Below, one piece after another: positions 9,001-12,000 of a stretch of 64,000 nt of DNA. Each line of letters opens with the position of its first letter. The stretch's first letter is position 1. The stretch lies in the NCBI RefSeq assembly GCF_003018115.1, contig NZ_CP027457.1, one strand, 5' to 3'. Position numbers: made by a program. Source of the DNA: Escherichia coli (GTDB lineage Bacteria; Pseudomonadota; Gammaproteobacteria; Enterobacterales; Enterobacteriaceae).

Positions 9001-12000
9001 GTGTGTTTTTCCCTGCATGATAAGTTCTGCCATCCAGTTGAAAGCCTGGATGTACGTAACCTTTATTTGCATCGCAGTCTTACCAGTAAACCCCATAACG
9101 ACCAGCATGTAACCGTCTTTCGTCATGTTAAACATTGGCTGGACATCACCATTTTTATCAATAAAATCAGTAGGCTCAAAATTGAGCCGGGCAAAATCAT
9201 CAGGACATTCAGAAATGGTTTGCCTGATCTTTCTTAATACGTTCTTATGACTCTTACCAAAAAATTCCGCCACTTTAATACTCGTGGTCAGGACAGAGCC
9301 TCCCACTACCATAACCATGTCACGAAAATCAATGCCGTTAACAACGGTAGAATATTTCATAGCGTGTACCTGCTCTTTGAAATGAACCTTTGCCGCACAG
9401 GAAACCAGCCCACCGAGGCTCGCCAGCACTAACTGGTATCCTCAAAGGCTCATTCCAAAGGGGCAGGTTCGGTGGTTATCATGCGCTGCGGTGCGCGGTG
9501 AAATTCAGATATGAAAAAGCCAGCGATTAAGCAGGCTCTGTTAATTCAGGCACTGAGTGCGGATATATTCCTGAAGCGTTCTCAATGCGGCCTGATCGCT
9601 GATGATTCCGTCTCTGATACCGAGAACGTTTCGTCCAGCAACTGGAGAGAGTTCGACGGAGGCATCATTGCCCACGCCGGAGGTGGTGGGGGCTTCACGC
9701 ACGGAGCCTGGACAGGTGGCGTTGATCCGCAGGCGCTTACGACCAGCGGCAACATCAGCACGCAGAGTTTCATTTTCAGCTCTCGCATCGGCTAATTCCC
9801 TCGAGTATTTTGCATCGAGCGCAGCAACATCGCGCTGGCGCACCTGCATATCAGTAATGGTTGCGTTTGCCTGCTCCAGCTCTCTGGCTTTTTTATCGCG
9901 CTGCGCTTTGTAGGTGATGGCGTTATCGCGGTAATGATTCAGCCCCAGACTAAGCGCACCACAGACCACCAGCAGAATAACGGTAAACGCGGAAAGCATT
10001 CGGTTTATGCTCACTCCAGCAGCCCCGACGAAGACAACATCATCCAGCCCATGGAAAGAAAAAGAGCAACCAGCATTAGTGAAAATGAAATGCCGACGAT
10101 TACACAGAGGATCTTCGCCAGCATTATGAGTTTGTCTGACATGTTTAATCCTCCCTTCACGATTTCAACGCAATGACCAGTTTTGCCAGCCCATACAGTA
10201 TCGGAGACACAGCGATACCAACCGCCACCCACTTAATAGCAAAAGCCAGCGCTCTGCTGATGTCATCACTTACTGGCGCTTTCAGTTCAGGGCCGTTTTT
10301 CATAGTCAACCTCAACAGAATTCGTTTATACTTTTCCATGTTCTCCCTTGCCTTATCCAAGGTCAGAAACACAAAACCCCGCTTGCTGCCAACAAACGGG
10401 GTTTTTACTTTTATTCACTTAGGTTTTGCCAGTTCGCAGGATTTCGTGTTATCCGTCCGCGTTGGCCAACGTCATTTTTCAGCAAAATATTCTGCTTATC
10501 TGTCGATTCCCCAGCACGCCAGCGCGCTCTCCTGGTCACGACGGGATATCTGGCCGTAACAGTTGTTTGAGCGGATACGGCAGTCTCTGCCACCGTCCTT
10601 AATCCACCAGCGAATCGCTTCACACGCTCCCCTGCGATCGCCTGCATTAATTCGTTTATAAAACGTCGACGGGAAACACTTACCGGGGCCAATGTTATAC
10701 GGGCAGAATGACGCGATCCCCGCTTTCTGGGGTTCAGTCAGTGGCACCCGGATGTTTTTCTCCACCCATGCCAGCGCCTTATCACGCTCAATGGCGTTAA
10801 CCTGGTCGCATTTTTTCTTCGACAACTTCATGCCCGGGACGACAGGTTTGCCATCCACCCTGGTGGCACCACGACAAATGGTCCAGATACCCGCACCATC
10901 ACGGTATGCCGTGGTGTGGTTACCTTCTTTTTCATCCAGAAACTGGTCGAGAATATCAGGCGCAGGCGCCCCTGCGGCAATCAGCGCCAGAACGGCAGCC
11001 GACAGGCCGTATTTGATTTTGGTGTTCATGGATATTTATCAGGATTTATCGGTTCCGGATCCCTGGATATGTTAAGCCTTCACCCCACCAGTGGTGGGCA
11101 CTGGCGGGTTCTTAATTTCCCCGGATGATCGTGGATTACATTCCACCAGGAGATTACTTATGCTTATCTATCCAGCGGCAGACCTCCGTTTACAGGGACG
11201 CAGAGCACAACCATGGGATAAAACAACCACTCATAAATATCGTCCCGGTCAATATTATGACTTTCGTAAACACCCGGAACTGATCGAGACACACCTTGAG
11301 GATTTTGTTGAATATTCAGACAGACAAGCGATTCAGACCTTTTTTTCTTTTGTTAAGTGGATCAACAGCAATTCATCTGCATTCGAGAGCACGGACTGCA
11401 TGTTTTCAGGAACACCAAAGGTTGATGAATACGCCCCGGTATTTGGTTGCACCCATGCGTCATCTGGCCGCTTCGAATTTTTGTTTCGCGATACGAAAAT
11501 AAACCAAAATGAGCGAGCTGTCGGATGGGTACTTAACAAACTATCGCTCTACCTTCAGAAAGAACGGCCCGATTTTTGTAAAGGAACCTTTGGCATCGTT
11601 CCCCTCATGACGGAATATACCGACTCCGGCGGTAACGAGTTCACCGGTTATCGTATTTGTGTCTATTTCGATGCTTACGGGAATGGAACAGAGGATACCT
11701 GGACTTCTCTCAACATCATGTTTGATGGCCTCATGAAAGCCACCAAAAGAATGAGCAATGAAACAATCACTGGCGAGATGCGTCCCCTTTAAAAAATTAT
11801 CCAGAATCTCACTATTTGCAGAGCGCTCTCTGTTTTTTTGAATACGGAAACACTCTGCGAGATTTCTGCTCATCACTTTCCGGCAATAATCGTCAAACGC
11901 AGCAAACTGCTCATCGCGGCGTTTTTTTTCACCTTCGGAAGGGATCTGCACCGACAGTTTTTTATTCAGTTCAACGACGCTGTTCTCCAGTTTTTCAATG

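Follow-up and report, generated by a model that had tools for sequence, protein, structure and literature searches.

Two small membrane-protein genes between endolysin R and Rz in a phage lysis cassette of Escherichia coli

What are two small membrane-protein genes doing between the endolysin gene R and the spanin gene Rz of a phage lysis cassette? In phages of Gram-negative bacteria, control of lysis timing is commonly attributed to the genes for holin, endolysin and spanins, and accessory regulators of lysis are known for few phages, among them P2 LysA, T4 RI, Mu gp25 and P1 LydB. The question is raised by a 64,000-nucleotide (nt) stretch of E. coli contig NZ_CP027457.1 (assembly GCF_003018115.1), hereafter the window, the minus strand of which carries, in this order, genes for a class II holin, a DUF1327/YdfR-like protein and endolysin R, a spacer, a hairpin, two small open reading frames (ORFs) of 60 and 43 amino acids (aa), and Rz with Rz1 [Table 1]. 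An earlier note on this DNA had singled out these two ORFs, hereafter ORF60 and ORF43, and had contrasted the layout with canonical cassettes in which R is followed directly by Rz; the roles it suggested, antiholin-like regulation of lysis, superinfection exclusion or toxicity, find partial support here. Both ORFs are present on the minus strand as described, and both are called by PGAP, as "hypothetical protein". The finding is thus real and was correctly described, but its anomaly was overstated: the layout is common, the 441-nt module being found at a coverage of at least 80% in 999 of 5,426 complete E. coli genomes (~18%), and the R-Rz junction is a frequent site of insertion.

The coding status of ORF60 was assessed with the Nei-Gojobori method on 22 distinct alleles collected from 80 viral contigs. 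Variable sites at the first, second and third codon positions numbered 9, 5 and 22, respectively, and the ratio of nonsynonymous to synonymous differences (pN/pS) was 0.15 in frame versus 0.95 and 2.5 in the other two sense frames. Protein motifs persist in distant relatives, and ORF60 is, on the strength of these alignments, a genuine gene under clear purifying selection on its protein. Its start is preceded by the Shine-Dalgarno sequence AAGGGAG (10349..10343). By hydropathy analysis the product is basic toward its N-terminus and hydrophobic in a C-terminal helix (about residues 37-57), the helix that had been noticed earlier, and an AlphaFold2 model built from a 15-sequence alignment shows helices at residues 2-20 and 23-59 (predicted local distance difference test score, pLDDT, 75). 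ORF60 is predicted to be a tail-anchored, single-pass protein with its N-terminus inside the cell.

ORF43 is almost wholly hydrophobic (grand average of hydropathy 1.61; best 19-residue window at residues 11-29, Kyte-Doolittle 2.9) and is predicted to be a single-pass inner-membrane microprotein, likewise with its N-terminus inside. The strong ribosome-binding site attributed to it is indeed there, in the form of the Shine-Dalgarno sequence AGGGAGGA at 10156..10149, 6 nt before the ATG. In the most diverged copy, that of locus L080, 42 of 126 nt differ from the window while the ATG, the length (43 versus 44 aa) and the hydrophobic profile are kept; pS is 0.63 and pN 0.225, yielding a ratio of 0.36 against values of at least 1.0 in the other sense frames. 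The synonymous-site pattern expected of frames conserved across homologs is therefore present in both ORFs. Close alleles of ORF43 yield pN/pS ratios of 0.5-0.7 and are too similar to decide. At the protein level, the 43-aa length is held across more than 100 clusters, down to ~65% identity, with K4, S19, F20, W33 and L36 invariant, and W33, L36, G40 and L41 are retained together with the hydrophobic helix through 33% DNA divergence. Among 80 ORF60-bearing loci, ORF43 is intact in 64, carries a C-terminal frameshift of the same length in 8, is frameshifted throughout in 2 and is absent from 6. On this combined evidence from sequence comparison, ORF43 is a real gene. Two other interpretations of the same DNA were rejected. 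An 80-aa ORF on the plus strand (9934..10176) spans all of ORF43 and is open in all homologs, but it lacks a Shine-Dalgarno sequence and is best regarded as a shadow of ORF43, with which its wobble positions coincide; such a frame is expected to be open since NTN-rich codons rarely give antisense stops. Nor is ORF43 a duplicated Rz anchor, as it yielded no BLASTP alignment with the Rz N-terminus.

How tightly is the pair tied to Rz? The ORF43 TGA (10013..10011) overlaps a GTG (10014..10012) in the sequence GTGA, and this GTG is a possible start of Rz. PGAP, however, starts the identical Rz gene at the ATG at 9999, 15 nt past the GTG, and other Rz alleles start with an ATG (ATG AAC CG.., MNR...) that aligns with ATA (Ile3) of the window. 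Of the coupling proposed in the earlier note, the close packing therefore holds, and does so in all alleles, whereas the exact overlap with a GTG start of Rz is a matter of interpretation. In 69 of 71 loci, ORF43 and Rz either overlap or lie a few nt apart, and the gap between ORF60 and ORF43 is 14 nt in the window and 12-17 nt across IMG/VR loci. Arranged head to tail in this manner, ORF60, ORF43 and Rz would be translated as a chain with the spanin genes. The same geometry is open to a more economical explanation in which the proteins have little or no function, ORF43 being a translated leader that restores the coupling of Rz after insertions have broken an R-Rz overlap, and ORF60 a selfish passenger kept by linkage. 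In insert-free lambda-like cassettes R does overlap Rz, as in prophage Qin of E. coli K-12, where rrrQ overlaps rzpQ with nothing between and the module is absent; the ORF43 frame of every allele terminates at the Rz start or a few nt from it, also where the Rz alleles differ; C-terminal frameshifts that keep both length and overlap are tolerated in 8 of the 80 loci; and close ORF43 alleles give a pN/pS of only 0.5-0.7. We nonetheless consider this explanation distinctly unlikely, given the purifying selection on ORF60 and the persistence of its motifs in distant relatives, the conservation of the ORF43 helix and its W33/L36/G40/L41 residues at a pN/pS of 0.36, and the retention of ORF43 in three loci where it does not adjoin Rz (L026, L080 and L005).

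Upstream of ORF60, the terminator-like hairpin reported earlier was recovered by a terminator scan at 10405..10373, with 15 pairs in the stem AAAACCCCG...CGGGGTTTT followed by a T-run. The stem is flanked by T-runs on both strands and is thus potentially bidirectional as a terminator. Across 15 variants of the hairpin 12 pairs are predicted, 3 with compensatory changes. The ~90-nt spacer that separates R from the hairpin is conserved. The hairpin precedes ORF60 in every genomic context examined, and the stem, its A-rich upstream flank and the 5′ untranslated region (UTR) travel with ORF60 behind varied upstream genes, namely R21-like 177-aa and other PF00959 (161-179 aa) lysozyme-type endolysins, an endolysin with a weak GH19 match, antirepressors, and, in two non-lambdoid cassettes, a 93-aa ORF located behind endolysins judged by eye to be GH108-like and M15-like. 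The hairpin is, on this comparative evidence, part of the ORF60 module. The stem lies no more than 33 nt from the ORF60 ATG, a promoter scan found no sense-strand promoter between R and ORF60, and inspection by eye found no sense promoter overlapping the hairpin. There is consequently no room for one, and sense transcription of ORF60 must pass the terminator from upstream. In lambdoid phages, Q-modified polymerase reads through terminators, and sense transcription of the module would presumably derive from Q-antiterminated late transcription only.

These features bear directly on the possibility that the pair is a lysogenic-conversion moron, made in the lysogen to block DNA entry by superinfecting phages or to modulate a host inner-membrane protein, with the R-Rz junction serving merely as a permissive site. 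HK97 gp15 and other small superinfection-exclusion (Sie) proteins act as such lysogen-made morons, and morons typically carry their own promoter. Like bor, lom and Sie genes of the HK97 gp15 type, the pair is sporadically distributed, bounded by a terminator, inserted at a module junction and composed of small membrane proteins; its presence varies among closely related prophages in an extreme mosaic, the R-Rz site carries classic accessory cargo, and a distant homolog of ORF60 is situated behind tail-fibre genes at the end of a prophage, a typical moron location. In contrast to morons, the terminator here precedes the gene instead of following it, and no promoter was found, the 33-nt interval leaving no room for one. 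The tight translational chaining to Rz is likewise unexpected for an independently expressed gene, PADLOC returned no match, and uninduced Sakai RIBOseq lists show no signal, the latter being weak evidence as the sequence is repeated in the genome. On balance, a moron role appears unlikely, if still worth weighing.

The start region of ORF60 displays a further layer of conservation. Within the 5′ UTR, a 5-bp stem (CCTTG/CAAGG) overlaps the ORF60 Shine-Dalgarno sequence, and this stem is invariant across variants while its loop varies. Between the window and Salmonella alleles, no difference was found in the 42 nt of codons 3-16, as opposed to 37 of 132 downstream (Fisher p = 1.5e-5), and third positions differed at 0 of 14 sites in these codons versus 25 of 44 downstream (p = 1e-4). 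Codons 3-16 are thus frozen at the nucleotide level, and something besides protein must be encoded there. A candidate is a second translational start, consisting of a GAGG at 10313..10310, a 6-nt spacer and the ATG of codon 13 at 10303..10301. Met13 occurs in every relative (M-K-N/D-G). The GAGG-6 nt-ATG arrangement is kept in the window, in Salmonella and in loci L103 and L109 through the Arg codon AGG, which is rare in E. coli, and locus L106 has an internal Shine-Dalgarno sequence in the form GGAGG through Glu-Val codons. Many independent gene calls report the 48-aa form. Since the N-terminal extension (Y-K/R-K/R-..-R-L-T/S) is conserved as protein, the 60-aa and 48-aa forms are likely both made, and ORF60 probably yields two isoforms, initiated at Met1 and Met13, that differ by a basic 12-residue N-terminus with a net charge of +3 to +5.

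The candidate dual start recalls the dual-start holins lambda S107/S105 and phage 21 S71/S68, which are also encoded in lysis cassettes and have two in-frame starts, each with a Shine-Dalgarno sequence, and whose longer product is the more positive N-terminally, as the 60-aa form of ORF60 would be. The resemblance extends to the small stem over the upstream Shine-Dalgarno sequence of ORF60, lambda sdi being a small stem in the equivalent position. It differs in that the two putative ORF60 starts lie 12 codons apart rather than 2-3, that ORF60 has no charged C-terminal tail, and that its extension belongs to a cytoplasmic domain of ~36 residues instead of forming the tip of a helix that must flip. 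A separate elaboration of the same region was seen in the Salmonella and GER2 alleles of loci L087 and L091-L095, where an insertion of ~25 nt, placed ~35 nt ahead of the ORF60 start, gives rise to a mini-ORF of 8 codons (MCREVCSL) behind the E. coli-type Shine-Dalgarno sequence; its TGA overlaps the GTG start of ORF60 (GTGA), and it contains a second strong Shine-Dalgarno sequence, AGGGAGG.

The frozen codons might alternatively, or in addition, encode a promoter on the opposite strand. Plus-strand positions 10303..10332 read TAGTCA, an 18-nt spacer and TATACT, both elements falling within the synonymous-invariant block, which ends 1 nt past the -10. The GER2 paralog keeps this geometry (TGGACA/18/TATACT), as does L103 (TAGTCA/18/TATAAT; sequence inspected by eye). 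A putative antisense RNA of ~70 nt starting there would cover the ORF60 start and Shine-Dalgarno sequence and end at the hairpin (fold z = -2.95), which on the antisense strand is followed by a conserved TTTTTACTTTTATT flank. Such an RNA over the start of a small hydrophobic single-pass peptide is reminiscent of prophage type I toxin-antitoxin systems, and one could envision ORF60, and perhaps ORF43, as membrane-damaging proteins held down by the cis-antisense RNA, in a module that stabilizes the prophage, aborts infections or assists lysis. There is a precedent in hokW-sokW of Sp5, which is reported to aid release of that phage (PMC8621323). As against this, the promoter match is weak (9/12) and no better than chance, with 1 site found in the region versus 1.5 expected; K-Y-K codons give a -10-like string almost automatically; and the conserved GAGG in the antisense spacer is better explained as the internal Shine-Dalgarno sequence. 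Neither ORF matches Hok, Ldr, TisB or Ibs, and as no Pfam family matches them, no known type I toxin family does. The pair also differs from stand-alone toxin genes in lying inside a late operon, and no promoter for a toxin mRNA was found. An Rfam search over 8500..12800 returned nothing beyond a sub-threshold match of the hairpin to the rimP leader (E = 0.45), and none of the 63 candidates in the Hfq-CRAC table of Tree et al. (2014) is an Hfq-bound small RNA at the Sakai copy ECs_2740. We therefore regard an antisense RNA over the ORF60 start as a hypothesis only and a type I toxin-antitoxin role as very doubtful, and prefer the second start over the antisense promoter as the cause of the frozen codons, the two not being mutually exclusive. 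Four Sakai candidates were set aside as ORF60 antisense RNAs, EcOnc10, EcOnc11 and EcOnc12 for lying downstream of Rz (checked at Sp9 and Sp12) and EcOnc33 for lying within the 9-O-acetylneuraminic acid deacetylase gene ECs_1527. EcOnc12 (L096; Sakai 1779522-1779569, Sp9) is an abundant Hfq-bound candidate on the opposite strand, ~75 nt past the Rz stop, and EcOnc10 (L098; Sakai 2234239-2234287, Sp12) is another, several hundred nt past Rz; EcOnc11 (Sp10) is probably their equivalent, judging from its spacing from EcOnc01a.

How widespread is the module, and how constant is its setting? Any part of the 441 nt is found in 2,074 of the 5,426 complete E. coli genomes (~38%). Strain 00-3076 is identical to the window over the module, and in O157:H7 Sakai the pair corresponds to ECs_2740 and ECs_5740 of prophage Sp14. 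A 48-aa form of ORF43 (MGWLMISDKL...), whose start falls on an antirepressor stop codon and whose end lies 7 nt upstream of Rz, is represented by ECs_5707 (Stx2 prophage Sp5) and ECs_5722 (Sp9), both of which were translated; ECs_5730 (Sp11) and ECs_5732 (Sp12) match it by size and position alone. Among phage records, 198 match the module, most of them Shiga toxin (Stx)-converting phages that match over the ORF43-Rz junction only, the ORF often being unannotated, and the full ORF60-ORF43 pair occurs in seven phages that were deposited recently and grown on K-12, E. coli C or ECOR13. Relatives of ORF43 are limited to Escherichia and Shigella, and those of ORF60 extend to Salmonella and E. marmotae. 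A profile search of 1.84 billion representative proteins with the ORF60 alignment retrieved just 24 clusters and no annotated relative, and a scan of GTDB species-representative genomes with a single peptide pattern found none.

R lies upstream and Rz downstream of ORF60 in 78 of 80 IMG/VR loci. The junction itself is loaded in various ways, with ORF60 and ORF43, with ORF60 and a 28-aa ORF, with an antirepressor and ORF43, with an antirepressor and ORF60, or with a 31-aa ORF, ORF43, the C-terminal 40 codons of ORF60 (GTGA-coupled) and the 28-aa ORF. The latter matches the ORF60 PHROGs (E = 4e-6). In L026/L027 (3337-4272), the gene for a 311-aa DNA methyltransferase with a DPPY motif has been inserted exactly at the ORF43-Rz boundary, 7 nt past the ORF43 stop. 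This variety of cargo identifies the junction as a hot spot of recombination and insertion, and direct adjacency of R and Rz is just one of several common states. The helix of 31-aa ORFs from Stx phages resembles the ORF60 C-terminus by eye; they belong to a different PHROG (phrog_6632) and are not claimed as ORF60 homologs.

More distant relatives place ORF60 in other lysis cassettes. In Salmonella, where ORF43 is absent, ORF60 lies 10-20 nt before Rz (PF03245), and the combinations of holin and endolysin that precede it number at least three. The two non-lambdoid cassettes, which encode a 92-aa holin, carry ORF60 with or without a relative of ORF43, and there a 60-aa lipoprotein, phrog_7528, replaces Rz downstream; this protein, of a PHROG of unknown function, has a lipobox-like signal (L080 3340-3522; L054 3192-3374), and no recognizable Rz was found in these cassettes. 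On a P2-like myovirus contig (L103), an ORF60 relative comes after a PG_binding_1 protein that is taken as the endolysin, and behind this relative lie two small ORFs that have lipobox-like signals (3150-3565). The phrog_7528 protein and the small ORFs of L103 may, judging from these signals, be unrecognized outer-membrane lysis components. The link of ORF60 to lysis cassettes is frequent, yet absolute it is not. In L106, where the ORF60 relative lies outside the lysis cassette, it is still on the late-gene strand, and the region contains a tandem array of near-identical units, each with two terminator hairpins, a Shine-Dalgarno sequence and a small transmembrane ORF; the ORF60 relative, a distant one, is among these ORFs.

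Do the two proteins belong to a known system? Pfam returned nothing for ORF60, the sole Pfam match of ORF43 was DUF3930 (E = 0.15), NCBIfam gave no usable match for either, and a PADLOC search at E up to 1 matched 0 families with ORF43, with ORF60 or with the 60-aa lipoprotein that accompanies them. The PHROGs matched by ORF60 and ORF43 are families of unknown function, whereas the true holin matches phrog_20/9876. Holins have at least one transmembrane domain, as both ORFs do, and end in a charged cytoplasmic tail; ORF60 ends 1-3 residues past its helix (...ALKS) with its charge located N-terminally, and ORF43 ends ~7 uncharged residues past its own. An i-spanin joins an N-terminal transmembrane domain to a long periplasmic coiled-coil, and a unimolecular spanin joins a lipobox to a C-terminal transmembrane domain; neither ORF has a periplasmic domain or a lipobox. 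The nearest analogue by position and membrane nature is P2 lysA, a non-essential antiholin gene located in the late lysis module between endolysin K and the Rz-like lysB/lysC, the product of which is an integral inner-membrane protein with four transmembrane domains (PMC3091744). The gene order, endolysin, membrane protein, i-spanin/o-spanin, is the same; ORF60 and ORF43 differ from LysA in having one transmembrane domain each, in being only 60 and 43 aa long, and in accompanying a class II holin rather than P2 Y. A looser likeness is to the Mu gp25 releasin, a small DUF2730 protein tethered to the membrane by an N-terminal anchor, with a cytoplasmic domain, encoded in a lysis region together with a signal-arrest-release (SAR) endolysin (PMC9239132). 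ORF60 is also small, membrane-tethered and endowed with a cytoplasmic domain in a lysis region, but its helix is C-terminal, it has no DUF2730 match, and it also occurs beside endolysins that lack a SAR segment by eye. Literature searches that covered lysis cassettes, spanins and small membrane proteins turned up no work on ORF60 or ORF43. Both are uncharacterized families, catalogued as hypothetical, and of a known general type, that of the small accessory membrane proteins encoded in phage late operons.

Taking together the coding status, selection, membrane character, module structure, distribution and coupling geometry observed here, we propose tentatively, at somewhat short of an even chance, that ORF60 and ORF43 are late-only, non-essential inner-membrane modulators of the timing or efficiency of lysis, positioned like P2 lysA and matching it in role. 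They would form a mobile accessory module of the late operon. Late, lysis-linked expression is favored by the lack of a sense promoter, the upstream terminator, the dual-start-like motif and the recurrence in unrelated lysis cassettes. Restriction to late expression, the existence of two isoforms and an influence on lysis are inferred. The ORF60 isoforms would be generated by dual starts, the same device as in holin/antiholin pairs, and since neither protein has a periplasmic domain, action would take place within the inner membrane, a likely route being helix-helix contact with the pinholin, the membrane anchor of the endolysin or that of Rz. A more specific version, in which ORF60 is a new, tail-anchored regulator of lysis timing with opposing isoforms, gated by a terminator that only Q-modified polymerase can read through, by the Shine-Dalgarno stem and possibly by an antisense RNA, and acts with ORF43 on one of these three targets, strikes us as improbable in its full detail.

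Several observations weigh against the proposed role of the pair in lysis. The small genes are dispensable, being absent from K-12 Qin for example, and ORF43 is frameshifted or missing in 16 of the 80 ORF60-bearing loci. Its pN/pS is mirrored in the wobble-matched antisense frame, because of which its strand assignment rests on the ATG, the Shine-Dalgarno sequence and the profile of the membrane helix. No specific partner can be named for ORF60, which accompanies holins and endolysins of many types, and in L106 (2880-3500) its relative lies after tail-fibre genes at the prophage end, outside the lysis cassette. Unrelated cargo such as an antirepressor or a methyltransferase occupies the same R-Rz site, so that the position may only mark a permissive site of insertion. 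Pfam, NCBIfam and PADLOC revealed no homology of either protein to a holin, antiholin, releasin or defence family; the Sakai loci ECs2740/ECs_2740, ECs5740/ECs_5740, ECs5707/ECs_5707, ECs5722, ECs5730 and ECs5732 appear in no searchable paper; and the Sakai RIBOseq supplements of Hücker (2017) contain no entry at the coordinates of the module.

Table 1 Features of the lysis cassette, in window coordinates
Feature	Coordinates	Strand	Basis
Holin, class II S21-like, 71 aa, Met1 and Met4	12551..12336	-	phrog_20/9876; PGAP 'class II holin family protein'
Endolysin R, 177 aa, hydrophobic N-terminal SAR-like segment	11029..10496	-	phrog_7; PGAP 'lysozyme'
Intrinsic-terminator hairpin	10405..10373	-	terminator scan
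ORF60 5′ UTR	10372..10340	-	sequence and fold
ORF60, 60 aa	10339..10157	-	phrog_1115/4493/3246; same family as Sakai ECs_2740
Putative second ORF60 start, GAGG, 6 nt, ATG codon 13	10313..10301	-	motif conservation
Putative antisense promoter	10303..10332	+	promoter scan
ORF43, 43 aa	10142..10011	-	phrog_4906; same family as Sakai ECs_5740
Rz i-spanin	10014..9541 (GTG start) or from ATG 9999	-	phrog_13, E = 7e-73
Rz1 o-spanin lipoprotein, embedded in Rz, longest ORF	9788..9582	-	lipobox-like motif VVSAC

A likely start of Rz1 is MKLCVLML..., and its Sakai homologs are annotated 'lipoprotein precursor'. Directly downstream of Rz lies a Rha-like antirepressor gene (phrog_518; 9429..8815, minus strand); in strain 00-3076, otherwise identical over 9990-10430, a 225-nt hypothetical gene takes its place, indicating a mosaic break directly after Rz. 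Between holin and endolysin, a 263-aa ORF (12332..11541, minus strand), the DUF1327/YdfR-type PHROG match of which is limited to the first ~170 residues, is separated from R by ~510 nt, and a 233-aa ORF on the plus strand (11091..11792) has no PHROG or NCBIfam match; in 00-3076, the DUF1327 gene is annotated by PGAP as truncated, and ~1 kb carries no annotation. The interval 11030-12332 looks like an insertion or rearrangement. Elsewhere, in Sakai Sp4 (L100; 1183365-1186375), the cassette consists of holin, endolysin, the 37-aa ORF ECs_1094, Rz and pchA; it is encoded on the minus strand, against the orientation of both the prophage feature and the neighboring late genes, and is flanked by IS629 and ISEc8 fragments, which suggests that the Sp4 lysis cassette is inverted.

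Two widespread and unstudied families of small membrane proteins are thus encoded in the lysis cassette, and a relative of ORF43 lies directly upstream of Rz in the Stx2 prophage Sp5. If the pair does modulate lysis, burst timing and toxin release would be affected, as the release of toxin by Stx phages depends on lysis; if, further, the two isoforms of ORF60 oppose each other, they would set the moment of lysis and hence of Shiga-toxin release in the many Stx phages that bear ORF43. Should the pair have no role in lysis, it would provide a clean example of small-protein cargo that recurs at a hot spot of phage recombination. The frozen synonymous sites of ORF60, for their part, illustrate concretely how a gene for a small protein and a regulatory signal can overlap.

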